Assembly: GCA_023653095.1 (NCBI GenBank)
Contig: JAMNXP010000002.1
Coordinates: 80,910-144,909, forward strand
DNA: 64,000 nucleotides
Reading direction: 5' to 3'
From: Bacteroidia bacterium
GTDB taxonomy: Bacteria > Bacteroidota > Bacteroidia > NS11-12g > UBA955
The notes under the pieces were generated by a model. It ran no database searches. It worked only from the letters and a program-made list of their open reading frames with translations, and was not told where the DNA came from. Positions 2,512 through 54,268 of this stretch are shown piece by piece; within the stretch, counting starts at the first letter, position 1; each line of letters opens with the position of its first letter. The position numbers and the translations under genes are program-made.

Positions 2512-4056
2512 ATGAATTATATGAAAGTAAAAATATTTTTTTTGCCCTTTATAGTATTTTCAGCAGCAAAGATAGGCGCTCAATCTGCACCCAATTGGAG
2601 CGAACATGTAGCTCCCATCATTTATAAAAGTTGTACTCCTTGTCATTCTAGTGGCGGTATTGCTCCATTTGCCTTGAGCAATTATCAAGAGGTAAAGTAT
2701 TTGGGAGATGCGGTGGTTTCAGCAACACAGGCTAAGCGAATGCCTCCCTATCCCGCGAGCCTAGAAAAGAATAGATACGCTCATGAAAATGTTCTGTCTG
2801 CTTATGAAATTGACGTAATCAAGCGGTGGAACGAGAATAAACATCCCCAGGGAGACACCACAAAAGAACCAAAAAAACCCGTATTGAATTCAAGCAGTGA
2901 CCTGCTTCGCGTGGATGTAAGCTATAAAATGACACCCTACTTGGTGAAGACCAACAGCGATGTTTACAGATGTTTCGCGATTCCTAGCAATTTATTTTCC
3001 GATAAAATGATCAAAGGGATGGAAGTGATTCCTGGCAACAGAAAAGTAGTGCATCATGTTTTGGTTTTTCAAGATACCTCACAAAAGCCCTTACAATTAG
3101 ACAATGCAGATCCAGAACCCGGCTATAAGGCCTTCGGAAGCACGGGCAGTGCGAGTTCTACTTTGTTAGGGATGTACGTTCCAGGTCAGTCACCGTTTTT
3201 GTATCCATCAAATTTTGCTGCACGAATTAAAAAGAACAGTGTAATTGTACTCCAAATACACTATCCCCCGGGTATCAACGAAATTTGGGATTCAACCAAG
3301 CTCAATTTGATGCTCGAAGATCCCTCAAATCAAAGAGAAGTTTTTGTGCAATCACCATTGAATTATCAAAGTCCTTCTCTCGTAAACGGTCCATTATACA
3401 TCGAAGCCAACGCCATAAAAACATTTTACAATCGATTTGTTATGCCTGCGAAAATCAGCTTTTTGGCCGTAGCACCTCATATGCATTTACTGGGTGATAC
3501 CATAAAATCAGCACTCATAAATGGAAAAGATACAACCCCTATAGTCGATATTCCAAAATGGGATTTCCATTGGCAAATGGCCTATCAATTTCGGAAGCCT
3601 ATTGTCGCTGATAAAGGGTCAGTTCTCTGGGGGAAGGCAACCTATGACAATACCTATGCTAATCCAAACAACCCGAATGTTCCTCCGCGAGATGTTTCGG
3701 CTGGCGAAGGCACTGCAGATGAAATGTTCTTGATTTATTTCTGGTACACCCTCTATAAGTCGGGTGATGAGAATTTGGAATTGGATACCACGCCGCTGAA
3801 GATGTTGGATGTGTCTCATGTAAATCAAAGTAATATTCTTGCTTACCCGAATCCGGCGAACAGCCAAATCAACGTAATCAATGCACTTCATGGATCAAAG
3901 ATTCGCGTCTATAATTCTTTAGGAAAACTGATCTTTGAAACCTCGGTGAATGGCGCCACAACATCTATCAATGTCCATAATTGGCCCGATGGAATGTATA
4001 TCATCCAAAATTCAAGCTTGAACGGAGATTCGATTATTCGATTTTTGAAGAATTAG
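2512..4056 (+). CDS. Secreted copper type II ascorbate-dependent monooxygenase-like protein with N-terminal CxxCH motif and T9SS type-A C-terminal sorting domain
   Basis: Signal peptide, then CTPCH (CxxCH). An HH...H triad (VVHHVLVF, IHYPP) and an HxH...M triad (APHMHLLG, TADEMF) sit at PHM/DBH-like spacings. The C-terminus (ILAYPNPANSQINVIN...IIRFLKN) is typical of a T9SS CTD. Confidence 0.6.
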   Translation: MNYMKVKIFFLPFIVFSAAKIGAQSAPNWSEHVAPIIYKSCTPCHSSGGIAPFALSNYQEVKYLGDAVVSATQAKRMPPYPASLEKNRYAHENVLSAYEIDVIKRWNENKHPQGDTTKEPKKPVLNSSSDLLRVDVSYKMTPYLVKTNSDVYRCFAIPSNLFSDKMIKGMEVIPGNRKVVHHVLVFQDTSQKPLQLDNADPEPGYKAFGSTGSASSTLLGMYVPGQSPFLYPSNFAARIKKNSVIVLQIHYPPGINEIWDSTKLNLMLEDPSNQREVFVQSPLNYQSPSLVNGPLYIEANAIKTFYNRFVMPAKISFLAVAPHMHLLGDTIKSALINGKDTTPIVDIPKWDFHWQMAYQFRKPIVADKGSVLWGKATYDNTYANPNNPNVPPRDVSAGEGTADEMFLIYFWYTLYKSGDENLELDTTPLKMLDVSHVNQSNILAYPNPANSQINVINALHGSKIRVYNSLGKLIFETSVNGATTSINVHNWPDGMYIIQNSSLNGDSIIRFLKN

Positions 4057-4139: not shown

Positions 4140-5501
4140 ATGCAAAAAAGTGCTTTGGTATTACGGATTTTCACTTTGGTTTTTTCTTTTATTTCTGGGG
4201 GACATTTATTCGGGCAAGGAATTATGGGAGAGGGTAGCTCTTCGTCAGCGCTCAATATTCCCAATCGGCCTTTACCTCCATTAGATAAAACAGACTTAGG
4301 TGAAATTTCCTATTTCGATATCACTCAAGAATTGCTGGACTCTCTGCGAAGCAGATACAGACTTCAAAAAACACCTTATTATAAGGTGAAAATGTCAATT
4401 GGGAATTTTTCAGAATCAGGGGTATTAAGACAGCAGGTTTATTTAAGATTTGGTTCAGTTAAAGCAAATGACGAGGTCTTTCGTATGAAACGGAATTTAG
4501 TCAAAGGTAAGCTCATTGCAGTAGATTCACACGGAGTCTACCTCTATCAGAAGTCAGCAAAAAAAATGGGATTTGTACCATATACTGATATTTGGTATAT
4601 CCGAAGAGGAAATACAAGTTCAGATAAAATAGTTCGAGATGCAAGCGCAATCATTGGTACTACAACTCTTATTGGAATGGGAGCTGGAATTGCAGAAGGG
4701 GAAATAGATTACGTACCACTCGGGGTTATTATTGGTGGGCTATTTGGTGCTTTCCTTTCCCCTATTGTCATAGTACCAGATTTGATTTATCACGAACTTC
4801 AAAACACTTCAAAGCGCATAAAATTCCGTATTAATTACCGCAGTGATAAGATGACCGATTACATTGCGATGGTAGAAAAAGACCGTTATCGCTATGGTAA
4901 GCGCATCATGTACCATGAGTTTCCAGGTTCTAGCAATCCCAGAATTAATCAGGATGAACCAGTGATCAGCGATCAGCCGTCAGCGGTAAGCCAGGATGCG
5001 GCTATCAGCGATCAGCCGTCAGCTAACAGCCAAGAGCCAATGGCCAAAGACCAAGATCCAATAGCCAAAGACCAAGATCCAATAGCCAAAGACCAAGATC
5101 CAATAGCCAAAGACCAACAAACAATAGTCTTACCATCTTTTAAATCAGGTAAGTACATTTCGGCTGCTTGGATGGTTCAAGGGTTTGAGTCAAAGTTTGT
5201 TAATGTGCAACGCATGTTGAAGACGTTTCCAGATTTGAGAAACAGTCAATTAACAGATTCAGATAAAGCACTTTTTAAGAATTCCGATGAAGTAAAATAT
5301 GCAGCAATGCTTATTTGCACTCCTTTGGGATTTGATTTTAGTAAAGCGGTAGAACTCGATGAGAGTCAAGCGAATGATTTATCTCAGTTACTGCCTTATT
5401 TTAATGTGCAGATAGTAAACGGACAAACTGTTATCAAGTCAAGCGCATTGACGAGAATTGACGAAGTGAACCTAGAGTTTCTCTACAAATTAATGCAATA
5501 A
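4140..5501 (+). CDS. Exported hypothetical protein with internal low-complexity tandem repeat (SDQPSA.., PIAKDQD x3)
   Basis: Signal peptide MQKSALVLRIFTLVFSFISGGHLFGQ. Contains a 7-bp and 21-bp periodic repeat tract. No recognisable catalytic motif. Confidence 0.6.
   Translation: MQKSALVLRIFTLVFSFISGGHLFGQGIMGEGSSSSALNIPNRPLPPLDKTDLGEISYFDITQELLDSLRSRYRLQKTPYYKVKMSIGNFSESGVLRQQVYLRFGSVKANDEVFRMKRNLVKGKLIAVDSHGVYLYQKSAKKMGFVPYTDIWYIRRGNTSSDKIVRDASAIIGTTTLIGMGAGIAEGEIDYVPLGVIIGGLFGAFLSPIVIVPDLIYHELQNTSKRIKFRINYRSDKMTDYIAMVEKDRYRYGKRIMYHEFPGSSNPRINQDEPVISDQPSAVSQDAAISDQPSANSQEPMAKDQDPIAKDQDPIAKDQDPIAKDQQTIVLPSFKSGKYISAAWMVQGFESKFVNVQRMLKTFPDLRNSQLTDSDKALFKNSDEVKYAAMLICTPLGFDFSKAVELDESQANDLSQLLPYFNVQIVNGQTVIKSSALTRIDEVNLEFLYKLMQ
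4965..5122 (+). repeat. Heptanucleotide-period tandem repeat array (4 units, 11-nt spacer, 17 units; includes 3 exact 21-bp units aatagccaaagaccaagatcc)
   Basis: Read directly: atcagcg atcagcc gtcagcg gtaagcc ... atcagcg atcagcc gtcagct aacagcc aagagcc aatggcc aaagacc aagatcc aatagcc (x3 of the 21-mer) aaagacc aacaaac. Confidence 0.85.
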
Positions 5502-5510
5502 AATCTCACC

Positions 5511-7817
5511 TCAACGAGTGAATACATGAGTCTGAGCAGCTCCTAAATGATGTGGTTGATCATACAAACTGAATTCAATGGGCGATTCACCAAGATTGCT
5601 GATGCAAATTTGTTTTTCAGAAACCTCAATGTTCACAGGTTGATTGTGGTATAGGATTTTGAAAGCGTATTTCTTCCATTCCTTGGGTAGGTTAGGAGAA
5701 AGTTGAAGGTGTTGATTCTTGATTCTCAATCCCCCGAAACCCTGAACAATGCTCAAATAACTACCTGCCATAGAGGTGATGTGTAGACCGTCTTCGGTGT
5801 CGTTGTTGTAGTTGTCAAGATCTAAACGAGCGGTGCGTAGGTACATCTCATACGCTTTGTCAAACTCGCCAATTTTTGCTGCCAGAATGCTATGAACACA
5901 GGGACTTAACGAACTTTCATGAACGGTGAAGGGTTCGTAGAAGAGGAAGTTTCGTTTGTGAGCTTCTATGTCAAAGTCGTCTTCGAAGAAATATAGTCCT
6001 TGAAGAACGTCTGCTTGTTTGATGTAGACGCTTCTGAGAATGCGATCCCAGCTCCATTTTTGGTTTAGGGGTCTATCAACAGCGGGAAGGTCATTTACGG
6101 GAATGAGTTCTTTGTCTAAGAAGCCGTCGTGTTGAACGTAAACTTGTTCTTGCTCATCGAAGGGAAGGTACATATATTGCATGATGTGTTCCCATTTTTG
6201 AAGTTCGGATGCTGCATCAAAGGAGGTCTTTCGTCCAATTTCTGCGAATATTTGAGGGAATTTGGATTGCAAGAATTCAGTAGCTTCTTTGGTGTATTTT
6301 AGGCACCACATGGCTATGTAACTCGTATACCAGTTGTTGTTTACGTTGTTTTCGTATTCGTTGGGACCGGTAACACCGTGCATTTCGTAACGTTGTTTAC
6401 GGTTGTTCCAATGAACGCGTTGAGCCCAGAAACGACTGATGCCCAAGAGGACTTCAAGTCCGCCTTCGGCAAGATAGGTGCGGTCTCCAGTGTGCTCAAT
6501 GTAGTTGTAAATGGCGTATGCAATGGCACCATTTCGGTGAATTTCTTCGAAGGTAATTTCCCATTCGTTGTGACACTCTTCACCGTTCATGGTAACCATG
6601 GGGTACAAAGCGGCCCCTTTGTTAAAGCCGAGTTTAGCGGCATTTTCAATGGCCTTATCTAGTTGTTTATATCGGTAAACCAGAAGTTGTTTTGATATGC
6701 TAGAATGGCTTGAAACGAGGTAGAAGGGCAGGCAGTATGCTTCTGTGTCCCAATAGGTGCTTCCGCCGTATTTTTCTCCGGTGAAGCCTTTTGGGCCAAT
6801 GTTCAATCTTGGGTCATCGCCGCAGTACGTTTGGTTCAGGTGATAGATGTTGAATCGAACTGCTTGTTGTGCAGCATCATCACCTTCCACGACTACATCG
6901 TGGTTGTTCCACTTTTCGTTCCACGCTTTTGAGCTCATTTCGAGGTGAGATTCAAATGTGGAGGAAGCCATTTTCTTCACGGCATTTTTTGCATGAATTA
7001 AGACTGCATCGTTCGGATGGTTGAAGTTGCTGGCTGAGATGACGTGTTTTACGAACACGAATTCATGTCCCCCGGAAAGAGAAAAAGAATAAGTGCTTTC
7101 AGCATATTTCGATTTTACCGAGTGCTGTGGTTCAGGCGAAAAAGCTTCGCCGTCAAGGAAAAACTGAGCCACACAAGAAGTTGCCAAAAGCCAATCGAGC
7201 TTTTTTGTGCGCACCAATAAGTGGAGCTCGTTGGAGGTGCTTTCTTGGCTCTCTTCGAGCCAGAATTGTTCGTCGTAATTGCTGTCTTTGTTGGATATAT
7301 CTCCGTCAAGATAGTTTGTTAAGGAAACCTCGCAATTCTGGTTGGTCTTAACGCGGTAACGGAGCGCGGAATATTCTTTGTTGATGAGGCTGTAAAAACG
7401 GGTTGATTCAATGGTGACCTCGATGCCGTTGTTTAAGGTAATGGTGCTCCGGCGGTTCAATACGCCGTTGAACATATCTAGTTCTCGATAGAACTGATGG
7501 ATGGTTGCATTGTTTAAATCAACTAATTCATGGTTGATTTTCAATACAATACCGCTCCAGTAAGTGCTGTTAATGACCTTAGCGAAGTATTCTGGATATC
7601 CGTTTTTCCACCAACCAACGCGGGTTTTATCTGGGTAGTAAACTCCACCTACATAAGTGCCTTGCAGGGTATGTCCGCTGTATGATTCTTCTAAGTTGGC
7701 TCGCTGTCCCATCATGCCATTTCCAATGGCAAAAACGCTTTCAGCGACTTCGTTGTATTGAGGGTCAAAACCTTCTTCAATGACCTTCCAAGGGTGAACT
7801 TTGAAATAGGATTTCAT
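5511..7817 (-). CDS. Glycoside hydrolase family 65 disaccharide phosphorylase (maltose/trehalose/kojibiose phosphorylase)
   Basis: 768 aa. The N-terminus ...ESVFAIGNGMMGQRANLEE is typical of GH65. It sits immediately downstream of beta-phosphoglucomutase. Confidence 0.9.
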   Translation of the reverse strand: MKSYFKVHPWKVIEEGFDPQYNEVAESVFAIGNGMMGQRANLEESYSGHTLQGTYVGGVYYPDKTRVGWWKNGYPEYFAKVINSTYWSGIVLKINHELVDLNNATIHQFYRELDMFNGVLNRRSTITLNNGIEVTIESTRFYSLINKEYSALRYRVKTNQNCEVSLTNYLDGDISNKDSNYDEQFWLEESQESTSNELHLLVRTKKLDWLLATSCVAQFFLDGEAFSPEPQHSVKSKYAESTYSFSLSGGHEFVFVKHVISASNFNHPNDAVLIHAKNAVKKMASSTFESHLEMSSKAWNEKWNNHDVVVEGDDAAQQAVRFNIYHLNQTYCGDDPRLNIGPKGFTGEKYGGSTYWDTEAYCLPFYLVSSHSSISKQLLVYRYKQLDKAIENAAKLGFNKGAALYPMVTMNGEECHNEWEITFEEIHRNGAIAYAIYNYIEHTGDRTYLAEGGLEVLLGISRFWAQRVHWNNRKQRYEMHGVTGPNEYENNVNNNWYTSYIAMWCLKYTKEATEFLQSKFPQIFAEIGRKTSFDAASELQKWEHIMQYMYLPFDEQEQVYVQHDGFLDKELIPVNDLPAVDRPLNQKWSWDRILRSVYIKQADVLQGLYFFEDDFDIEAHKRNFLFYEPFTVHESSLSPCVHSILAAKIGEFDKAYEMYLRTARLDLDNYNNDTEDGLHITSMAGSYLSIVQGFGGLRIKNQHLQLSPNLPKEWKKYAFKILYHNQPVNIEVSEKQICISNLGESPIEFSLYDQPHHLGAAQTHVFTR

Positions 7818-12759: not shown

Positions 12760-12767
12760 TAACTTTG
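12760..12767 (+). promoter_or_regulatory. Candidate -7 box TAacTTTG upstream of the giant PKD-repeat gene
   Basis: TAnnTTTG match that overlaps the ORF-track TTG start at 12765. This argues the real start is ATG 12771 or 12777 (MKKLQK.. signal peptide). Confidence 0.25.
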
Positions 12768-12776
12768 TTAATGTCA

Positions 12777-15700
12777 ATGAAAAAATTGCAAAAAATAGCC
12801 TCTTCAATTGCAGTTTTTTGCACTTTTTGCCAATTATTTTTAACTATAAATACTTCGAAAGCCCAGTGTAATGCTGGGTTTTCTTATGATACGCTCCTTT
12901 GCACGGGAAAAAATATCTCATTTTCAGCCAATTCCTCGGCTAGCGGACTTAAATATCAATGGGAGTTTGGCGACCCAGCATCAGGCGCACTGAATACCGA
13001 TACTCTAAAAAATACGAAGCATTCTTTCAGTAAACGAGGAACCTATCTGGTTACTCTCATTGTGACCAATTCTTCGGGTTGTCGCGATTCTGTTTCAAAA
13101 ACAATCACGGTTTATAAAAATCCAGTTGCTCAGTTCAGTTATTCGAATGCATGTGCTGGATTAAAAACATCCTTCGAAAATAAAAGTACGGGCGATTCCA
13201 TTGATAAAATCAAGTCGTATTTCTGGAATTTTGAGTCAGGCAGTACGAGCGGTGATTCTTCGCCGAGCTATAGTTTCAGTTCTACAGGGTCTAAAACGGT
13301 AAAATTGAGGATTGAATCTAAGTCGGGCTGCAAAGATTCTTTATCGGTGGTTATTCAAGTTTTTGATAAGCCATCTGCTACGCTTGCGGGTAAGAAAGTA
13401 TGTCAAAACAGTACGTTTGCCTTTTCTGCCGATGCTAAAACGGGAGTAAGTGCCTATACTTGGAATTTTGGTGATAGTTCCAATTATACCCAGCAAAATG
13501 TAAATCACGTATATCAGAAATTGGGTTGGATGAAACCGTCGCTTACGGTAACATACTCTTCCACGAAATGTATAATTCTCCTCGATTCAATTAAGGTCAA
13601 TCCGTTGCCCAATGCCAATTTTGACATCGTAAATGATACCCAATGCTTCAATGGCAATGAAGTTTGTGTGAAACTCAAACACGACCTGAGCATCACAAAA
13701 CGTAACATCATTTTCGACGATGGTTTTAACGATGATTTTTCGTCCATCAAAGATTCAATCATTTGCCATAAATACATTGATAAGGATGGTGGGACGTATA
13801 GCATAACTGTGGAACTGACCGATTCTAATTCGTGTTCTAGGACGGTGAAAAAAGATTCAGTGGTGGTCATCTATCCGCAATTAAAAGCTTCTTTTTCTCA
13901 TCCATCTTCTGTTGGATGTTTTGGATTGGGAGTGAAATTCCTAAATACGTCCAACAGAGATTCCGCTGCAGTAAAAACCACCACTTGGATTTGGGGAGAT
14001 TCTTCGAGCAGCAACAAACCCCATTATAAACCGAGCCACGGATTTAAAAAAGACGGAATTTTCTATGTGAAGTTGGCCTTGACGGATACCTTTGGGTGTA
14101 CCGATACGTTTACTTCGCCCAATAAAATTCAAAATACTTCATACGTTGTTGATGCTAAATTGGATTCTATTTCAAGTCAATGTGCTCGAAATAATGCTAC
14201 TTTTTTTTATCAGACGCCCATTTCAGGGGCATCTATAGTTTGGCAAATTCCTTATCAATCTAACAGCTTCCAATTTTCTTACAATTACCGCACACCGGGT
14301 ATTTACAAGCCGCGGGTGACCATCAGTAAAAATGGGTGTGATAGCACGTTGATGCTTGATTCTATATTGATTAGAGGACCTGTGGCACGCATGAATGTGG
14401 TGAATCAATTTCAGTGTCAGGTAAAAGATACTGTCTACTTTACCAATGCATCGAGTGCTTTTTACAACGGATATTTACAGTCTTATTGGGATGCCGGCGA
14501 TCAATGGGCACCCAATTGTGTGATCAATCGAAAGGCCGGTCAAAACGTAGGAAAAAACTGTAATTTTTCAAGAGATTCTCTCTCCTTTAAGCACAGGTAT
14601 AAAGACGGAAAAGAAGGTTGCTATAACGCACGGTTGATAGTTAAAGATACCGTACATGGTTGCTCCGATACCGCTTATGAACCATTGCCGTTAATGGCTC
14701 CCAAAGCCGCGGGTACCTTTACACCTAGCGATACCAATGCTTGTCCAGGTCCTGAGTTTTATAAAACGATTACCTTCGATTTGAATAAATCGGAACCTGT
14801 ATGCAAGAAGCTCAATTGGTGGGTGATGTGGGATTCACTGCAGGCCAGGAATACTTCTAATTTTGACAGCAATTGGATACAAAATAGCATCAGTTACAAC
14901 TATAAGGTGGGTGTGCCTGTAGGAGACTCAAACGGTTATGTGAGTATTGGTTTGGTCATTGAGAATGGTTCTGATACCGCGGGTAATGTTTGTAGAGATA
15001 CAGCCTGGTATCACAAGGCCATAAAAGTGACCAAGTTGGATGCGAAATTCAATACTCAATTTGAAGATTCATTGCATTTCTGTCCTGGTGATTCCATCTG
15101 GTTCAGGGTGAAAGACACGGCACAATCAGCAGGTATAAAGTTTACTTGGGATTTTGGGGATTCTAGAACGCTTACCACTACCAAAGTGGATACAGTGAGA
15201 CATGCCTACCAGAAGTCAGGTTCGTATTGGGTTCGATTAACGGCGGTTCACCCTAATGGTTGCACCATCTACGAGGAACGGTATATTTCTATTGGGTTTA
15301 AACCCGAACTCTTTGTTCATAAGACCTTGATCTGCGCCAAAGTAGATAGTTTTAGGTTGACAGAGAACACCAAATACTACCATTTGGAACAAAATTCTGC
15401 AGGCATTTTCAGCAATCCACAGCGTTATCAAGCAGGAAAAGAACAGATCAAGTACGATCTAGGCGATGGTTCTGGCTATCAATATTTGGGTAAGAATCCG
15501 GTATTTTCATATAACAAACCCGGCGTATATACCATTTCTATGGCAGTAAAAGACAGTATGGGTTGCAGGGATACGCTGAAAAATCACCTAATTCTTAATG
15601 TTTCAGGTATTTATGCGGGCTTCAATTTGCCGTCTGATACGGTTTTATGTCCTCAAACCCTAAAAATAAACTCTACAGCCAAAGTGGCTGATACTTCGGG

Positions 15701-18700
15701 GGCTTCACTTTCGGGGGATGTTATCACGGGCTGGGAATACACGTTTGGAGGCACTTATCCCAAGAGTTTGTTCGAAAATCCGAACAGGTATTTTGCCACC
15801 GGCGATTATCCCATCGTTCAAATAGTGAGGAACAACAGAGGTTGTACAGATACCGCTAGAAAACTCATGGTGGTTGTGGGGCCGGAGCCCAAGTTTAATT
15901 TTCTTTCGGATTCAGTAGGTTGCGAACCATTGAAGGTCAAATTTGACAACCTTAGTCGAAATGCAGATGAGTATATTTGGCGTTTTAATGACAAGAATAA
16001 CAATGTATTAACCACACAGAGCGACAGTAATGTAACGCTCAGTTTTCAAGGCTATGGGTTTTATTATCCGCAGTTGGTAGCAAGAGGAACGTTCAAAATC
16101 AACGGAAACACCAAAGTTTGTGAAGCCATTTATCCAGATACTTCAAAGTTGTTGAGACGTACCGTTGAAGTATGGGAAAAACCAAGAGCCAATATGTTTT
16201 GGGTCACCAATTGCAAGAATTACACCACTCAATTTTATGATATTACTTCGTTGAATACGGGTTATGTGGCTGAGAGTATGTGGTTGTTTGGTGATACCTC
16301 TCTGGGAAGCGATAAGCTACATCCCTTTAAATCTTGGGGCGATACGGGTACGTATGCTGTGAGACATATTGTTATTTCAAACAAGGGCTGTGTAGACACG
16401 GTTGACCGAACAGTGAAGGTGTCTCCACCGCCCGTGGCTTATTTTAGTTTTACGTCTAGTTGCATTGGAGAATCTACTCAGTTTTACGATTCTACCGAAG
16501 CGTTTAATGATTATATAGATTACAGAAATTGGACTTTTGGAGATGGAAGTAGGAGCGGAGCATTGAATCCATTGAAAACTTATGCGAATGATCAAAATTA
16601 TACGGTGAATTTAGTGGTTCGAAATTCGGCGGGGTGTTTTGATACGGCCACGCGAGATGTGTTGATTTATTCCAGACCAGTTCCAAATTTTAGCGCTAGT
16701 AGTGTGTGTTTTGGGGACTCCACAAGATTTTTAAATAGCAGTACATCCAAACAGACCATAGACAGTATTTTATGGAGTTATGATGACTCTTCTTATTTCG
16801 GGGGATGGCAGCAAAAACACAAGTATAAATACCCAGACAACTTCAGAGTCAAGCTCAAGTTAAGGACCATTCATGGTTGTAAAGACAGTGTATCACGATG
16901 GGCTTTTGTTTACCATATACCTCAGGCAAAAATTCAATTCACGGCAGATTCTGTTCAGTGTTTTACTCAGCATGTTTTGAAAGCTGTTGATATATCTAGT
17001 GTAAAAGTAGGTTCCACAACCTCGAGATGGCAATTGGGTAATGTAAATCCTTTTGTCAACTATACTACAACAAACATTTCGCACCGGTTTAATGACACCG
17101 GAACTTATGCAATGCGCTTAATTTCGGTTTCGAATTATGGGTGTAGAGATACGGTATTTAGTAAATTTAAGATTTTACCGTCGGTGGTGCCCAATTTTAG
17201 TATTAACCAAGATTGGCAATGTTTTAGAGGTAATGAGTTTACATTCAGTGATTTATCGTCCCTCAAAAAAGGAAGTTTCACCGCGCAATGGACCTACAGC
17301 GATGGCACTCGAAGCAATGTAATTAATTCAAGTGGAAGTGTTAAGTATTCCTTTAAAGATACAGGTTATCAGTGGGCTATGCTGCGAACTCTAACTGATC
17401 AAGGATGCTCTGATACGCTGTTTAAATCGGTGCGATTGCTTCCCATGCCTAAAGCGAATTTTAATATTAATGATTCAATTCAATGTATTAAAAATCAATA
17501 CTTTGAATTTGCAAATACATCGTCGATTTTCTGGGGCAATCTGTCGTATTTTTGGAGCCTAGGTAACAGTGTTCAATCTACTTTGACTTCGCCAACGGCC
17601 AATTATCCCGATACGGGATACTGGAATATTCGGTTGATTGCTACTTCCGCGTTTCAATGTAAAGATACCGTTCACAAGCGCGTGAACGTGGTGGATATGC
17701 CCGTTCCGAAGTTCAGCATCAACGACAGTAGCCAATGTTGGAAACAGAATCAGTTTAAATTCACCAATAACAGCACCGATTCTAGAGGCGGAATCAAAGC
17801 GTATTGGAGTTTTGGCGATGGAACTGGAGATTCAGGTTCTTCCGTGAATCATGTCTATGCTAATTATGGAAATCGCTCGGTTCGACTGATTGCCCAAACC
17901 ATACACGGCTGTCGAGATTCATTGCGAAAAAATGTGTTTGTTAGGGCCATGCCATTGCCTGCATTTAGCATCAATGACAGTGATCAATGCATTAATAACC
18001 AGCAATTTATATTTACGAATCAGTCTACTATTCCTGTTGGTTTAAGTTCGGTGAGTTGGAAATTCAAAGGCGATTCCCTTTTGAAAGGAAATTCAATAGG
18101 GGTTCATTTTTCTAGAGATACAACATTTACTATGAGGCTGATTTCTGAAAGTGATTATGGGTGTATAGATTCAATTGATCGCAAGATTGTGGTTTTTCCA
18201 AAGCCTACGCCACTTTTCGAAATTGTCAATGATTCGCAGTGCTTAAGCGGTAATCTTTTTGAATTTAAGTCCCTCAGCAAAATAAAATACGGCTCCATGA
18301 CCTATGATTGGCAATTTGGGGATGGGAATGGCACTTTTAGTTCTGTTTCTCCCGCTCATAGTTATGTTGACGATGCACATTACCGAGTGAGTATGCTGGC
18401 CACAAGCAATAACGGCTGCACGGATACGGTTTCGAAGGGCCTTGATGTTTGGCCCATGCCAGTGGCTGATTTTACTTTCAATGATTCAGCACAGTGTTTG
18501 GAGCAGAATTATTACAAATTCACAAATACTTCAAAGGTTAAGTTTGGAACCATGACTTATTGGTGGAATTTGGGCGAGGGCAGCATTGGCGATACTTTTA
18601 ACCTGACCTCCCCTGGTTATTTTTATTCTTATTCCGGATTTAAACGCGCTTTTTTAAGAGCCAAGTCCAATCACGGGTGCATTGATACGGTCTCACGCGT

Positions 18701-20699
18701 AGTGAGGGTAAATCCTATGCCCGTCCCCCGAATAGCAGTGAATGATTCTGAGCAATGTTTGTTTGGGAATAAATTTGATTTTCGAGCTCTGAGTTCGATA
18801 GAAGAAGGGAATATGGCTTCTCAGTGGCTCTTGATGGACGGTTTTGCAACGGTGCAGAAGCAGTTTTCTCATTCATTCAATAAAGATTCATTCTATTGGG
18901 TGAAATTGATAGAAACATCGGATCAAGGTTGTATAGATTCGGTTTCGAAGTGGGTGGTTACACATCCGCATCCCATCATAGAGTTTACCATTAACGATAC
19001 GTTGCAGTGTTTGAGGCAGAATCAATTTGATATCACCAATTATACCCGGGTAAAATACGGTCTTTCTTGGGGACAGTGGGATTTTGGGGACAGTAAATTG
19101 GATACGAATTATGAAGTGTCACATAAGTACACCAAGCATGGTAGATATCCCATTGTCATGAGTGCCATCACCAATCATGGATGTGCAGATACTTCCACGC
19201 AATGGGTGAGGGTAGGTGCTATGCCCTCTGCTGATTTTTATACAAATGATCAGGGCCAGTGTTTCAGAGATCAAGATTTTATTTTTTTAAATCAAACGAG
19301 TATTCTTGAAGGCACCTATGATTTAACTTGGAATTTCGGTGGGGTTTCTTTTGTGAAGTCAAATCTGGATCAGAAATACACTTTCACTGATACAGGTGCG
19401 CATTTTGTTAGGTTAGTGGCCGTTTCTGACTTGGATTGTATTGATTCTGTAACACAATTTCTATTTGTCAATCCCAATCCCAAAAGTGTATTGCAAGTGA
19501 ATGACAGCGATCAATGCATCAATAGTCAGAATTTTGTTTTTGCGGCTTCGAGCAACATCAGTCGAGGTAAAATCATTGCTCATCAATGGAACTTAGATGA
19601 GGGAGATGTGAGAATGAACGGTGGTTCAATTGAATCAAAAATGTATGCAAATTCTGGATTTAAAACCGTTCGATTGGTGAATATTTCTGATAGTGGTTGT
19701 GTAGACAGTGCGAAGCAAGTGATTCGCGTCTATCCTCGTCCTACAGCTATTATTGGTATTAATGACAGCGCACAATGTTTGTTTCAAAATCAATACGTTT
19801 TTAATAATTTGAGCACTGATTCATTCAGTTTAATCAGGCAATGGTGGGATATCAATGGCGAAAAATCAGAGATATTGCCATTGGTTAATTACAAATTTGA
19901 TTATCCGGGCTATAAGCGAGTTTATTTGAATGTGGAGAGTTCTGTTGGATGTTTTGACTCTGTAAGTCGAGCTGTTTTTGTGAAACCCATGCCAGATCCT
20001 GTTTTTGCACCTTTAAGGGAATATTATTGTGAGGGTTCTGGGAATTATCCAATGCTTGCAAATGTTGCGGGAGGTGATTTTTACGGAAAGAATATGGTTG
20101 GAAGTAATTTGATTCCTTCGGTTTTATGGAAGGATACAATCAAATATGTAGTTTCCGTTAATGGATGCACAGATAGTTCCAGTCAAACTACGTGGATTTA
20201 TCCGTATCCAAGGGTTAATTTGGGGGCGGATAGTATTTTGTGTAAAGATGAACTCTTGGAGTTGAGCATTGACAATTGGAATACCCAATACACTTGGGAT
20301 GACGGCAGTAGACTTCCTTCTCGAAGAATAGTTAATCCGGGACTATATTGGGTAACAGCTACCAATATTTGTGGTGTGGCAAAAGATAGTATTCATATTG
20401 TTTTTAGAGACCACAATTGCAGGGTTTATTGCCCAACGGCATTTACTCCAAATGCAGATGGTAGGAATGAATATTTTAGGCCCATTGTTTATAATGTTGA
20501 GGACTTGACTTATACCATTTATAATAGATGGGGAGAGAAGTTATTTGAAGGTACCAAAGACGACCAAGGGTGGGACGGTAGTTTCGGTGGCTTGCCTGTT
20601 CAGTCAGGCAGTTATATTGTAATGTACAGCTACAGATATAAGAGTGGAATCAGGTTGTTGCGGGGTTCAGAACAAGTGGTATTTCATCTTATGCGTTAA
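12777..20699 (+). CDS. Giant cell-surface protein with more than 25 PKD-like repeats and a gliding-motility-associated C-terminal domain (T9SS type-B sorting domain)
   Basis: Signal peptide MKKLQKIASSIAVFCTFCQLFLTINTSKAQ. A ~85-90 aa unit recurs many times (..C..F.F.D.S...W.FGDG..S...NP.H.Y...G.Y.V.L...S..GC.D.....I.V.P.P.A.F). The C-terminus YCPTAFTPNADGRNEYFRPIV...RWGEKLFEG..GWDGSFGG matches the CHU_C/gliding C-terminal domain. The ORF-track start at 12765 is a TTG. Confidence 0.85.
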   Translation: MKKLQKIASSIAVFCTFCQLFLTINTSKAQCNAGFSYDTLLCTGKNISFSANSSASGLKYQWEFGDPASGALNTDTLKNTKHSFSKRGTYLVTLIVTNSSGCRDSVSKTITVYKNPVAQFSYSNACAGLKTSFENKSTGDSIDKIKSYFWNFESGSTSGDSSPSYSFSSTGSKTVKLRIESKSGCKDSLSVVIQVFDKPSATLAGKKVCQNSTFAFSADAKTGVSAYTWNFGDSSNYTQQNVNHVYQKLGWMKPSLTVTYSSTKCIILLDSIKVNPLPNANFDIVNDTQCFNGNEVCVKLKHDLSITKRNIIFDDGFNDDFSSIKDSIICHKYIDKDGGTYSITVELTDSNSCSRTVKKDSVVVIYPQLKASFSHPSSVGCFGLGVKFLNTSNRDSAAVKTTTWIWGDSSSSNKPHYKPSHGFKKDGIFYVKLALTDTFGCTDTFTSPNKIQNTSYVVDAKLDSISSQCARNNATFFYQTPISGASIVWQIPYQSNSFQFSYNYRTPGIYKPRVTISKNGCDSTLMLDSILIRGPVARMNVVNQFQCQVKDTVYFTNASSAFYNGYLQSYWDAGDQWAPNCVINRKAGQNVGKNCNFSRDSLSFKHRYKDGKEGCYNARLIVKDTVHGCSDTAYEPLPLMAPKAAGTFTPSDTNACPGPEFYKTITFDLNKSEPVCKKLNWWVMWDSLQARNTSNFDSNWIQNSISYNYKVGVPVGDSNGYVSIGLVIENGSDTAGNVCRDTAWYHKAIKVTKLDAKFNTQFEDSLHFCPGDSIWFRVKDTAQSAGIKFTWDFGDSRTLTTTKVDTVRHAYQKSGSYWVRLTAVHPNGCTIYEERYISIGFKPELFVHKTLICAKVDSFRLTENTKYYHLEQNSAGIFSNPQRYQAGKEQIKYDLGDGSGYQYLGKNPVFSYNKPGVYTISMAVKDSMGCRDTLKNHLILNVSGIYAGFNLPSDTVLCPQTLKINSTAKVADTSGASLSGDVITGWEYTFGGTYPKSLFENPNRYFATGDYPIVQIVRNNRGCTDTARKLMVVVGPEPKFNFLSDSVGCEPLKVKFDNLSRNADEYIWRFNDKNNNVLTTQSDSNVTLSFQGYGFYYPQLVARGTFKINGNTKVCEAIYPDTSKLLRRTVEVWEKPRANMFWVTNCKNYTTQFYDITSLNTGYVAESMWLFGDTSLGSDKLHPFKSWGDTGTYAVRHIVISNKGCVDTVDRTVKVSPPPVAYFSFTSSCIGESTQFYDSTEAFNDYIDYRNWTFGDGSRSGALNPLKTYANDQNYTVNLVVRNSAGCFDTATRDVLIYSRPVPNFSASSVCFGDSTRFLNSSTSKQTIDSILWSYDDSSYFGGWQQKHKYKYPDNFRVKLKLRTIHGCKDSVSRWAFVYHIPQAKIQFTADSVQCFTQHVLKAVDISSVKVGSTTSRWQLGNVNPFVNYTTTNISHRFNDTGTYAMRLISVSNYGCRDTVFSKFKILPSVVPNFSINQDWQCFRGNEFTFSDLSSLKKGSFTAQWTYSDGTRSNVINSSGSVKYSFKDTGYQWAMLRTLTDQGCSDTLFKSVRLLPMPKANFNINDSIQCIKNQYFEFANTSSIFWGNLSYFWSLGNSVQSTLTSPTANYPDTGYWNIRLIATSAFQCKDTVHKRVNVVDMPVPKFSINDSSQCWKQNQFKFTNNSTDSRGGIKAYWSFGDGTGDSGSSVNHVYANYGNRSVRLIAQTIHGCRDSLRKNVFVRAMPLPAFSINDSDQCINNQQFIFTNQSTIPVGLSSVSWKFKGDSLLKGNSIGVHFSRDTTFTMRLISESDYGCIDSIDRKIVVFPKPTPLFEIVNDSQCLSGNLFEFKSLSKIKYGSMTYDWQFGDGNGTFSSVSPAHSYVDDAHYRVSMLATSNNGCTDTVSKGLDVWPMPVADFTFNDSAQCLEQNYYKFTNTSKVKFGTMTYWWNLGEGSIGDTFNLTSPGYFYSYSGFKRAFLRAKSNHGCIDTVSRVVRVNPMPVPRIAVNDSEQCLFGNKFDFRALSSIEEGNMASQWLLMDGFATVQKQFSHSFNKDSFYWVKLIETSDQGCIDSVSKWVVTHPHPIIEFTINDTLQCLRQNQFDITNYTRVKYGLSWGQWDFGDSKLDTNYEVSHKYTKHGRYPIVMSAITNHGCADTSTQWVRVGAMPSADFYTNDQGQCFRDQDFIFLNQTSILEGTYDLTWNFGGVSFVKSNLDQKYTFTDTGAHFVRLVAVSDLDCIDSVTQFLFVNPNPKSVLQVNDSDQCINSQNFVFAASSNISRGKIIAHQWNLDEGDVRMNGGSIESKMYANSGFKTVRLVNISDSGCVDSAKQVIRVYPRPTAIIGINDSAQCLFQNQYVFNNLSTDSFSLIRQWWDINGEKSEILPLVNYKFDYPGYKRVYLNVESSVGCFDSVSRAVFVKPMPDPVFAPLREYYCEGSGNYPMLANVAGGDFYGKNMVGSNLIPSVLWKDTIKYVVSVNGCTDSSSQTTWIYPYPRVNLGADSILCKDELLELSIDNWNTQYTWDDGSRLPSRRIVNPGLYWVTATNICGVAKDSIHIVFRDHNCRVYCPTAFTPNADGRNEYFRPIVYNVEDLTYTIYNRWGEKLFEGTKDDQGWDGSFGGLPVQSGSYIVMYSYRYKSGIRLLRGSEQVVFHLMR

Positions 20700-27525: not shown

Positions 27526-27602
27526 TGGTGCACGCGTAGGGATTCGAACCCCAAACCTTCTGATCCGTAGTCAGATGCTCTATCCAATTGAGCTACGCAT
27601 GC
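27526..27602 (-). tRNA. tRNA-Arg (anticodon ACG), CCA encoded
   Basis: Reverse complement GCATGCGTAGCTCAATTGGATAGAGCATCTGACTACGGATCAGAAGGTTTGGGGTTCGAATCCCTACGCGTGCACCA folds as a cloverleaf. Acceptor 7 bp (one G-U), D-arm GCTC/GAGC, anticodon stem TCTGA/TCAGA with loop CTACGGA, T-loop TTCGAAT. Confidence 0.9.
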
Positions 27603-51514: not shown

Positions 51515-52775
51515 AGTACTACATATCAATGCCTCCTCAGAGGGTGGAGCATCTGTGGTTGCTCAACGACTCAATGAAGGATTGAATCGTTTTGGTCAAG
51601 AGGTTGAATCCAAACATTTGGTATTTTCTGGTCAATTGAGCCATGCACAAAGTGCTTCACCCTACATATTATGGGCCGATAATCTGCCAAAGAGGTGGTT
51701 TACTTTCCTAAAACATGCATTAGATAAGCTCAGTTTCTTGCGATTTGAGGCATCAAAGAAGGTCAGATTTCAATTCAGTCATGCCAGTCAAGGATTTGAC
51801 ATTTCCAACCATGAATTGGTACAATGGGCAGATATTATACATTTACATTGGGTACATAAAGGATTCCAATCTTTTGAAACTTTGGAAAAGTTATTGTCAG
51901 TACCCCACAAAAAATTTGTTTGGACCTGTCATGATTTATGGCCTGTAACCGGAGGTTGTTATTATACCTGGGGATGCGAAAATCATCAAGTGGCTTGCGG
52001 TAACTGTAAGTATTTAAAACATCCTGCCCTGAATGATATTTCTAGTTCTTTACTTGAGCGAAAAATTAAACTTTGGGGTAACAACCAAATCAAATTTGTG
52101 ACACCCAGTAGTTGGCTTGCCCATCAAGCCAATTCTAGCGTTGTTATGAAAAACAATGTTGAAATGTCTGTGATTCCCAATCCTATAGACTCTGAGAAGT
52201 TTCAACCCTTGGAAGAAGGAGTGAGGCAGGAATTGAAGCAGAGCCATGGATTTGATAAACCGTTGTTGATGTTTTCGGCAGCGTACTTACAAAATCCAGC
52301 AAAGGGTTTTTTATTTTTCATTGAGTTGTGTAATTGTCTGCGCCAACAGAATATTGATTTTGAGGTTTTGATTTTAGGAGACAATAAAAACGAGGAATTG
52401 GGGCCATTTTCCTTTAAGTTTACGCATTGGGGATACGTTACTGACATGGACAGGGTGAAATTAGCCTTCCAATTGAGCGATTTATATGTCATTACTTCGG
52501 TGCAAGACAACCTACCAACAACCATCATAGAAAGCTTGTCTATGGGCACGCCGGCTGCAGGGTTTAGGGTAGGAGGTATACCAGAAATGATAGACGATGG
52601 CGTTAATGGTTTCCTGGTTGAATCGGGTGATGTTTTAAGCCTTTCAAAAAAGGTGGGAGACTTCCTAAAAAACAATCGGGCCGATTTTAGAAATCAAGCC
52701 CGACTGAAAACATTAAATACATACGATACAAAGGTGATAGTAAATCAAATTACCACGGTCTATAAATCTCTTTAA
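51501..52775 (+). CDS. GT-B fold glycosyltransferase (family 4-like)
   Basis: C-terminal E..GFG.P-type motif (DNLPTTIIESLSMGTPAAGFRVGGIPEMIDDGVNGFLVE). Confidence 0.8.
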   Translation: MSKIKVLHINASSEGGASVVAQRLNEGLNRFGQEVESKHLVFSGQLSHAQSASPYILWADNLPKRWFTFLKHALDKLSFLRFEASKKVRFQFSHASQGFDISNHELVQWADIIHLHWVHKGFQSFETLEKLLSVPHKKFVWTCHDLWPVTGGCYYTWGCENHQVACGNCKYLKHPALNDISSSLLERKIKLWGNNQIKFVTPSSWLAHQANSSVVMKNNVEMSVIPNPIDSEKFQPLEEGVRQELKQSHGFDKPLLMFSAAYLQNPAKGFLFFIELCNCLRQQNIDFEVLILGDNKNEELGPFSFKFTHWGYVTDMDRVKLAFQLSDLYVITSVQDNLPTTIIESLSMGTPAAGFRVGGIPEMIDDGVNGFLVESGDVLSLSKKVGDFLKNNRADFRNQARLKTLNTYDTKVIVNQITTVYKSL

Positions 52776-54268
52776 TCTACGTTGTCATGCAACATCCTGT
52801 TGGGTTGCACAGTGAAATTGTTGTCTTTAGAATGTGTTTCAGTGCCCTGAATGGTTAATCTACTTACTTCTACAGCGCTACTAGGAGGTGCCGAAACCAA
52901 TTCTACGTTACGTCTCAAATAAGCAGGAATATCCATGTCGTTGTCATGTATACTCGCTTTGTTTTCTCGACTCAACGATTGTACGGCAGGCTGTTGATAA
53001 TTTAAGTGCAGCTGTGAATTACGGTTACTTTGTGTTTTAAAAAGATCTTCAACGCTTGGAGTGTTGATGTTCTCTTTCACGGTTAATGGCTTAGATTCTA
53101 TAACAGGTTCTGTTTTGGCAGCCATCGGCTCTCTGATAGGCTCTCTTGCAGGATCTCTCGCAGGCTCTCTAGATGGAGTTTCGAAACTAGCATCTTCAAT
53201 TTCTAAAGGAAGATCGGTTGGTACAAAGGTTTGAGTTTGTGCAACTTCTTCTATAAGTTGGTCAGTAAAAACTTCTTTTTGAATGGCTGTTACTTCTTCA
53301 AATCCAGTTGCAATAACGGTCACACTGATTTTGTCTTCCAATGTTGGTTCGAGGGTAATACCCATTTTTAGCAATGCATTGTTACCCGCTTCTTCTTGTA
53401 GGTAAGATGTAATGATTCGAGTTTCAGACATGGTGGGTGCTTTGGTGCCGTAGGTTAGGTTAATCAAAAGGTGTTTTGCACCAAAAATTCTAGTACTATC
53501 AAGCAATGGACTATTTAATGCAGCTCTAACGGCTAATTCCGCACGATTTTCACCGGCAGCAGTTCCAGTGCCCATTAAGGCTTGACCTGATCCTTGCATG
53601 GCGGTTTTAACGTCGTTGAAGTCTACGTTTAAGTGTCCGGTTTTGAAAATGATCTCTGCAATTCCCCTCGCGGCAGTGCAAAGTACATCATCGGCTTTCG
53701 AAAAGGCTTCTAAGAACGACAAATCGCCGAACATATCTACGATACGGTCATTGGAAATGGATATAAGAGCATCTACATGAGGTTTTAAATCAGCAATACC
53801 CTGTTGGGCTTGTTTTATCCTTACTGGACCTTCATCTGAGAAAGGAATGGTCACAATTCCAACCGTCAAAATGCCCATTTCTTTGGCGAATTTTGCAATG
53901 ATGGGAACTGCCCCAGTACCTGTTCCACCGCCCATGCCGGCAGTCAAGAAAATCATTCGGGTACCATCACCTAGCATTCGTTGAATATCGGCTTTGCTTT
54001 CTTCTGCAGCTTTTGCTCCCATATTGGGATCAGATCCAGCGCCAAGTCCTGCAGTAAGTTCATTACCCAATTGTATTTTATTGGGAACAGGACTATGTCT
54101 GAGTGCTTGGTTATCTGTATTGCAGATGAAGAAATCTACGCCCTCAATACCTTCACGGTACATATGATTGACAGCGTTTCCTCCGCCGCCACCTACTCCA
54201 ATGACTTTAATGATGTTATTCAATTTATTCGGTTGATTAGGTTCTGAATGAAAATCAGGTTGAAACAT
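52772..54268 (-). CDS. ftsZ: Cell division GTPase FtsZ
   Basis: IKVIGVGGGGGNAVNHM tubulin/FtsZ signature, GTGTGAAP T7 region, and a disordered C-terminal linker. Confidence 0.95.
   Translation of the reverse strand: MFQPDFHSEPNQPNKLNNIIKVIGVGGGGGNAVNHMYREGIEGVDFFICNTDNQALRHSPVPNKIQLGNELTAGLGAGSDPNMGAKAAEESKADIQRMLGDGTRMIFLTAGMGGGTGTGAVPIIAKFAKEMGILTVGIVTIPFSDEGPVRIKQAQQGIADLKPHVDALISISNDRIVDMFGDLSFLEAFSKADDVLCTAARGIAEIIFKTGHLNVDFNDVKTAMQGSGQALMGTGTAAGENRAELAVRAALNSPLLDSTRIFGAKHLLINLTYGTKAPTMSETRIITSYLQEEAGNNALLKMGITLEPTLEDKISVTVIATGFEEVTAIQKEVFTDQLIEEVAQTQTFVPTDLPLEIEDASFETPSREPARDPAREPIREPMAAKTEPVIESKPLTVKENINTPSVEDLFKTQSNRNSQLHLNYQQPAVQSLSRENKASIHDNDMDIPAYLRRNVELVSAPPSSAVEVSRLTIQGTETHSKDNNFTVQPNRMLHDNVD

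Follow-up and report, generated by a model that had tools for sequence, protein, structure and literature searches.

Does a heptanucleotide repeat inside an open reading frame (ORF) make the gene a phase-variable switch, or do the repeat units add and remove peptide without disturbing the frame? The question is raised by an ORF at positions 4140-5501 (+ strand) of a 64,000-nucleotide stretch of contig JAMNXP010000002.1 from a Bacteroidia bacterium; this whole stretch is called the window below. The ORF carries a tandem repeat tract, and its 453-residue product is 100% identical to the hypothetical protein NBV77_03040 of a Bacteroidia metagenome-assembled genome (MAG). A preliminary description took the repeat for an on/off contingency locus. 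Our analysis leads to another reading. The tract is most probably an in-frame coding minisatellite, and the peptide it encodes a disordered, acidic linker, rich in Pro, Gln, Ser, and Asp, that joins two conserved modules of an exported envelope protein of Bacteroidota.

The heptamer array lies at 4965-5122 and has the organization first given for it: 4 units, an 11-nt spacer, and 17 units. The first block reads ATCAGCG ATCAGCC GTCAGCG GTAAGCC from 4965 and is followed by the spacer AGGATGCGGCT (4993-5003), and the second block occupies 5004-5122 with the consensus AAcAgCC. The units are less uniform than was claimed. All of them were said to fit NNNAGCC/NNNANCC, and several, including ATCAGCG, GTCAGCT, and AACAAAC, do not. 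Neighboring heptamers have 4-6 of 7 bases in common and are never the same. Exact runs at shift 7 reach at most 6 nt in 4965-5122 and 7 nt in the whole tract (4926-5147), and the sole microhomology that recurs every 7 nt is CCAA.

The repeats that are nearly identical are longer. A 39-nt (13-aa) direct repeat is the better description of the first heptamer block. Its two copies, at 4965-4996 and 5004-5035, have 84% identity and match exactly over 20 nt at shift 39. In its full-length form, found in the relative L011, the 39-nt unit is five heptamers plus a 4-nt GGCT that restores the frame; the first such unit of the window has four heptamers and the 11-nt spacer instead. The second repeat is a 21-mer made of three related heptamers (AATAGCC AAAGACC AAGATCC). 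Its exact run at shift 21 is 54 nt, which makes the 75 nt from 5043 to 5117 (3.6 units) perfectly 21-periodic. Three perfect 21-bp copies encoding PIAKDQD three times had been reported here. In that register there are two perfect copies, at 5060 and 5081, and PIAKDQD occurs twice; the heptapeptide that occurs three times in the window tract is AKDQDPI. The near-identical repeating units have lengths divisible by 3 (21 and 39 nt), and the 7-nt sub-unit is degenerate.

The 7-nt period is nevertheless far above chance expectation. Shift-7 identity over 4965-5122 is 0.64, compared to 0.15-0.35 at shifts 5, 6, 8, and 9. In the tract core it is 0.60, compared to 0.27 ± 0.03 for codon-order shuffles (0/2000) and 0.35 ± 0.03 for synonymous recodings of the same peptide (0/2000). 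Tandem Repeats Finder (TRF) detected no other comparable array in the 64-kb window. Its only other match is a 12-nt x 3.7 in-frame repeat at 53127-53170 (GGCTCTCTCGCA, 81% matches), which sits inside an ORF at 52772-54268 (-).

Alleles of the tract were compared using 14 DNA tracts (the window and loci L001-L004, L007, L008, and L010-L016) and 8 further full-length proteins, for a total of 22 alleles with both flanks, plus 7 partial tracts. The conserved basic segment at residues 218-262 served as the left anchor for tract extraction. The preliminary description had proposed a comparison of strains for unit-number heterogeneity. All 22 two-flank alleles carry distinct tracts, with lengths of 42-92 aa (126-276 nt). 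Three sister-clade contigs from one project, L002, L003, and L004, are >99.5% identical across 4.9-7.3 kb. L002 and L004 are separated by 10 mismatches in 7.3 kb and one 21-nt gap, and L002 and L003 by 5 mismatches in 4.9 kb and one 42-nt gap. Both gaps fall in the tract, which has 0 mismatches in either pair. These gaps bear out the proposal that gain or loss of a 21-bp unit alters protein length in frame. L009 is a strain-level match to the same three contigs and has a longer tract that the assembler left unclosed with 100 N (L009:6912-7011). The sister-clade repeat unit is PLPTTND, and tract lengths within subclades step by multiples of 7 aa (44, 51, 65, and 72 in one; 42, 56, and 63 in another).

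In the window's own clade the flanks are 94-99% identical and the tracts are assembled from the same two modules, denoted A (13 aa, 39 nt) and B (7 aa, 21 nt). The module order is A2B4 in the window, B1A2B3 in L010, A4B1A1 in both L011 and L013, A1B1A1B3 in L008, A1B1A1B1A2 in L012, and A3 in L001. L010, L011, and L013, which differ from the window in this arrangement, are relatives of 94-95% identity. The 21-nt array has four copies in the window, three in L010 and L008, and one in L011 and L013, and the relatives have 2 to 4 copies of the 39-nt unit. The B arrays of the window and L010 are exactly one 21-nt unit apart. Divergence from close relatives is highest in the tract, where as many as 26 mismatches occur per 100 nt in addition to gaps, versus 0-12 per 100 nt in most flanking bins. 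The two flanks also differ when the window is aligned with L010, by ~3-9% per 100 nt on the left and ~0-3% on the right (5200-6065), a pattern that may mark a recombination breakpoint at or near the tract (window 4800-5150 versus L010 and L011). Gaps of 7, 14, and 28 nt between diverged alleles occur in compensating sets. They were not used as evidence because the sequence is 7-periodic, which makes such gaps indistinguishable from alignment ambiguity.

The reading frame is preserved throughout this variation. DNA tract length modulo 3 is 0 in 14 of 14 alleles, and out-of-frame tracts number 0/14 among the DNA tracts, 0/8 among the further full-length proteins, and 0/7 among the partial tracts. 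Among the alleles sampled, these data show that whole in-frame units are gained or lost between strains and that the frame into the C-terminal domain is always kept.

The host protein has the architecture listed in Table 1. Searches of Pfam, NCBIfam, and PDB sequences with the 453-residue protein gave no significant family match, and its matches to Ten1_2, DUF5892, and PdsO (19 bits against a cutoff of 152) were set aside as sub-threshold noise. A Pfam scan of 25 diverse family members returned isolated weak glycine-zipper matches and nothing else, and a profile search of PDB sequences with the family found no match. The N-terminal 26 residues are a probable signal peptide, judging from their hydrophobicity, and homologues close this segment with AQ- or GQ-type motifs. 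The pair of hydrophobic segments at residues 170-217 gave weak Gly-zipper Pfam matches in single family members and a weak PdsO match at residues 175-222; its composition suggests a glycine-zipper-like membrane hairpin. The linker that follows the basic segment contains D11 Q10 S9 P9 A8, with a net charge of -8 and a mean hydropathy of -0.98, and its peptide runs ...ISDQPSAVSQDAA ISDQPSANSQEPM AKDQDPI AKDQDPI AKDQDPI AKDQQTI... The C-terminal domain (120 aa) begins ...FKSGKYISAAWM. From its GKYISAAW anchor (residue 337) to the stop it measures 117 codons in 13 of 13 complete loci, and dN/dS compared to the window is 0.03-0.05 where synonymous sites are unsaturated. By this measure the domain is under strong purifying selection. 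The AlphaFold2 (AF2) model of the C-terminal domain alone is mostly helical, with a predicted local distance difference test score (pLDDT) of 76 and a predicted template modeling score (pTM) of 0.71, and it matched no fold in the PDB. A by-eye resemblance of a motif in this domain (EIQFLAM..T..GY.F) to YARHG was dropped, with a Pfam match in 0 of 25 members. An Rfam scan at the tract locus found no match.

Table 1. Features of the host gene and its repeat tract, in window coordinates
Feature	Position	Strand	Basis
Host gene, hypothetical protein of 453 aa, uncharacterized family	4140..5501	+	ORF list, 100% protein match
Putative N-terminal signal peptide, aa 1-26, MQKSALVLRIFTLVFSFISGGHLFGQ	4140..4217	+	Hydrophobic aa 5-24
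Gly/Ala-rich hydrophobic segment pair, aa 170-217	4647..4790	+	Kyte-Doolittle peak aa 188-218
Conserved basic segment, aa 218-262 (HELQNTSK...YGKRIMYHEFP), left tract flank	4791..4925	+	Many invariant alignment columns
Hypervariable low-complexity linker, aa 263-333	4926..5138	+	Composition; varies per allele, flanks conserved
Type-A modules, 39-nt (13-aa, ISDQPSxxSQxxx) direct repeats x2	4965..5042	+	Repeat family search
Type-B array, 21-nt unit x 4.2 (AKDQDPI)	5030..5117	+	TRF score 162, 97% matches
Conserved C-terminal globular domain, aa 334-453, mostly helical	5139..5498	+	Conservation, AF2 model

A profile search against 1.84 billion representatives identified ~30 distant relatives with the same architecture, and these have a low-complexity, length-variable linker without tandem repeats at the equivalent place. 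This retention of a variable linker indicates that the tract is the interdomain spacer of an uncharacterized envelope-protein family. A second protein search using a broad alignment returned almost exclusively close relatives that were already known. Profile matches confined to the linker (P0029, P0037, P0042, and others) were not accepted as homologues, being unrelated low-complexity proteins with a periodic sequence. There is also a paralogue of 780-794 aa (L006 (P0020) and P0087) whose N-terminal ~280 residues are common to the host protein, including the start of the linker (EFPESTNPTINQN.PAIS), and which continues from there into an unrelated long C-terminal region. The divergence of the paralogue at this point would make the linker a domain-swap junction.

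Spacers of this kind have parallels. In bacterial envelope proteins, in-frame variable number tandem repeats (VNTRs) include the 24-nt repeats of the S. aureus spa X-region, the Ser-Asp repeats of Clf/Sdr, and the streptococcal alpha-C repeats. They hold a functional domain away from its anchor, as a stalk or spacer, and slippage or recombination changes their copy number. The present tract resembles them in its head-to-tail units that are multiples of 3 and in its copy-number polymorphism among strains. It differs in having two unit types (21 and 39 nt) intermixed with a nested 7-nt sub-period, and in belonging to an uncharacterized family from uncultured, freshwater-type Bacteroidota MAGs. 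Pro-rich spacers are also known from the (EP)n(KP)n region of TonB and from the Pro/Thr 'PT' linkers of secreted glycoside hydrolases. Here too a Pro-rich, charged, low-complexity segment connects a membrane-proximal module to a globular C-terminal domain between conserved flanks, and the sister-clade unit PLPTTND is PT-linker-like. Unlike those proteins, the host protein has no homology to TonB or carbohydrate-active enzymes, and its spacer is tandemly repeated and hypervariable among strains. We infer that the linker would act as a variable-length tether from which the C-terminal domain reaches away from a membrane-anchored N-terminal module. Gain or loss of units would follow when adjacent 21- or 39-nt copies slip during replication or recombine unequally, and the phenotypic effect would be a change in tether length or sequence as opposed to on/off expression.

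The gene directly upstream of the host gene (window 2512-4056, +) encodes a copper type II monooxygenase-like (DBH/PHM-like) protein with a Por_Secre_tail sorting domain of the type IX secretion system (T9SS). Most fetched loci are syntenic, with the T9SS-tailed copper-monooxygenase-like gene upstream and a convergent GH65 gene downstream. The exception is L015, which has a methyltransferase gene upstream instead. Elsewhere in the window, a 2644-aa ORF at 12765-20699 (+) that contains 10 or more PKD domains along with a CHU_C type IX secretion signal encodes a giant T9SS-secreted surface protein, and a single tRNA gene at 27529-27602 (-) is the sole Rfam match. The records of L007, L008, and L009 are titled 'Chitinophaga pinensis' MAG and 'uncultured Rhizobium sp.', of which the Rhizobium labels look wrong: elsewhere this syntenic block goes under Bacteroidia/Bacteroidota, and it encodes T9SS-tailed proteins.

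The idea that the variation is adaptive accepts the in-frame turnover of units and adds positive selection for it. The linker would then be an exposed segment recognized by phages, grazers, or competitors, and the tract a VNTR resembling those of antigenic variation. Each allele is indeed different, the tract is the divergence hot spot of its region, the protein has a probable signal peptide, and T9SS-secreted proteins are encoded in the neighborhood. There is, however, no sign of a surface location for the host protein itself. Pfam and NCBIfam searches found neither a T9SS C-terminal domain nor a lipobox in it, and the hydrophobic hairpin suggests a membrane anchor; taken together, these features do not suggest surface exposure. 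The distant members have non-repetitive linkers of similar composition, as relaxed constraint would give, and the mutability of tandem repeats accounts for the diversity by itself. We consider adaptive surface variation unlikely. The general O-glycosylation sequon of Bacteroidota is D-(S/T)-(A/I/L/V/M/T). It occurs 0 times in the window linker, and single sites are present in 2 of 14 alleles.

The 7-nt sub-period bears on how the tract arose. The 11 alleles tested, drawn from both clades, all have shift-7 identities of 0.55-0.66, compared to 0.32-0.41 for synonymous recodings (0/2000); the sub-period is carried by synonymous codon choice. It is clearer in the sister-clade tract, where ACCAACG ACCCTCT ACCAACT encodes T N D P L P T, all three reading frames are open, and the rotated heptamer consensus AACTACC resembles the AAcAgCC of the window. 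The heptamers that build the tract DNA relate to AACNRCC. The simplest reading is that the tract descends from a heptanucleotide array that was read in three frames and later amplified as in-frame super-units, in which case the 7-nt substructure would be the footprint of the ancestral array, on the principle of E. coli neuO but with degenerate units. Ohno is said to have traced periodic peptides to oligomeric repeats with a unit length not divisible by three. The tract is like that concept in that a 7-nt oligomer in three frames yields a 7-residue period, with the frames all open in the sister clade. It is unlike it in that the concept concerns gene origin and only a linker, not a whole gene, is built this way here.

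A relic of this kind could instead be a living heptanucleotide array (~AACNRCC) that uses all three frames throughout the protein family and whose register is kept at synonymous sites over >35% protein divergence. The persistence of the register is what speaks for this version, which we regard as quite unlikely. If it were true, heptamer-scale slippage or conversion would be ongoing, with selection passing only net in-frame outcomes (3x7 = 21, 5x7+4 = 39). Populations would then hold low-frequency frameshifted (OFF) cells that are invisible to consensus assemblies, and the tract would amount to a contingency locus in decay, and a leaky one, among free-living environmental Bacteroidota.

The original proposal was stronger: slippage of a single 7-nt unit would reversibly frameshift the gene and toggle the C-terminal domain, as in neuO. 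One part of it holds. The 7-nt period within the ORF is genuine, and a change of +/-7 or +/-14 nt brings in a stop that yields a 312-336-aa product without the C-terminal domain. The openness of the three frames in the sister clade is also in its favor, as is the existence of coding heptanucleotide tracts that act in this way. In the neuO gene of the E. coli K1 prophage CUS-3, a perfect (5'-AAGACTC-3')n of 3-53 units lies at the 5' end of the gene, single-unit slippage can be measured, and the gene is out of frame in 65.6% of complete K1 genomes (PMC13001214). A locus of the neuO type would be expected to have roughly two thirds of its alleles out of frame. The present tract is like neuO in having a 7-nt coding unit of which three make one in-frame heptapeptide, with copy number setting the length of the peptide repeat (PMC13001214). 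It is unlike neuO in that the heptamers are degenerate, the identical units are 21/39 nt, the tract is mid-gene between domains, and 0/22 two-flank alleles are out of frame. The heptanucleotide simple sequence repeats of H. influenzae are found in the hmw1A/2A promoters and, as (AACAACC)n and (AATTTTG)n, inside some ORFs; they are perfect, reach 38 units, and have frameshifted alleles among strains (PMC2651432). They share the 7-nt unit with the window, and AACAACC resembles its heptamer consensus (PMC2651432), but the present tract has neither perfect runs nor frameshifted alleles.

The part of the proposal that fails is the switching itself. The longest exact shift-7 run is 6-10 nt in each of the 14 DNA alleles, and thus nowhere are there more than two identical adjacent heptamers. 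The preliminary description had itself named heptamers too divergent to misalign, with only the 21-bp units identical, as evidence against a switch, and this is what the tract contains. Near-identical alleles differ only by 21 or 42 nt. Fragmentary gene calls that might pass for OFF alleles trace to contig ends or to an unrelated 1-nt frameshift upstream of the tract. Gene callers report 109-aa C-terminal-only proteins (P0089 and P0090) from contigs that end inside the tract, and these are in frame. The same holds for all seven contigs that end inside the orthologous tract (L017-L023), each of which is in frame with the C-terminal domain. A 1-nt frameshift located ~130 nt before the tract accounts for the 231-aa N-terminal fragment P0088, and L009 only seems to change frame, an effect of its 100-N scaffold gap. 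A more diverged orthologue, L024 (GCA_964398595.1), is split into two gene calls by a 1-nt frameshift at L024:1230-1300 (HELQNTSRQKLNLK*), ~130 nt upstream of its tract; the tract itself and the C-terminal domain share one frame, and the frameshift marks a pseudogene or a sequencing error. The label of a classic contingency locus does not suit a tract with degenerate heptamers, no out-of-frame alleles, and a strongly constrained downstream domain of fixed length. These data argue against an on/off frameshift switch at the tract. Consensus assemblies may hide rare OFF cells, and for this reason the switch is retained as a very improbable alternative. A true switch would extend phase variation to free-living freshwater Bacteroidota, and the evidence argues against it.

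That the copy numbers and contig differences reflect short-read collapse or expansion of a tandem repeat is likewise highly improbable: seven contigs terminate inside the tract, L009 has its gap there, and L017 opens with an inverted tract copy, but the perfect stretch in the window is just 75 nt, the other units can be told apart by substitutions, the architecture recurs in 22 independent alleles that come from various projects and assemblers and differ in unit order and point differences as well as copy number, and two separate samples yielded the same contig with the tract (L018 and L021). The inverted copy at the start of L017 is probably itself an assembly artefact.

Several points weigh against the reading of the tract as an in-frame minisatellite that encodes a disordered spacer. 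The strain-level 21-nt steps come from the sister clade (~64% protein identity) and not from near-identical copies of the window allele. The tract is difficult for short-read assemblers, as the seven truncated contigs and the L009 gap illustrate, and some of the copy-number differences could therefore be collapses. The disorder of the linker is read from its composition, and the full-length AF2 model is uninformative everywhere (pLDDT 28.5, below 50 throughout, with the linker not distinguished from other parts). The tether role is our inference from the architecture. Finally, a passive relic does not fully explain a 7-nt register that persists over such divergence.

With these points considered, the locus falls among the in-frame coding VNTRs in linkers, with a probable heptamer ancestry, and would be a clean case of a heptanucleotide array turned heptapeptide linker. 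A 7-nt period in an ORF is insufficient to call a contingency locus; the deciding questions are which unit repeats identically and whether any alleles are out of frame. For work on this uncultured Bacteroidota lineage, the tract is both a natural VNTR strain marker and a recurrent source of contig breaks and scaffold gaps in metagenome assemblies. The host family combines a probable signal peptide, an N-terminal domain, a glycine-zipper-like hairpin, a variable spacer, and a constrained C-terminal domain without a known fold match, an architecture that may merit study.

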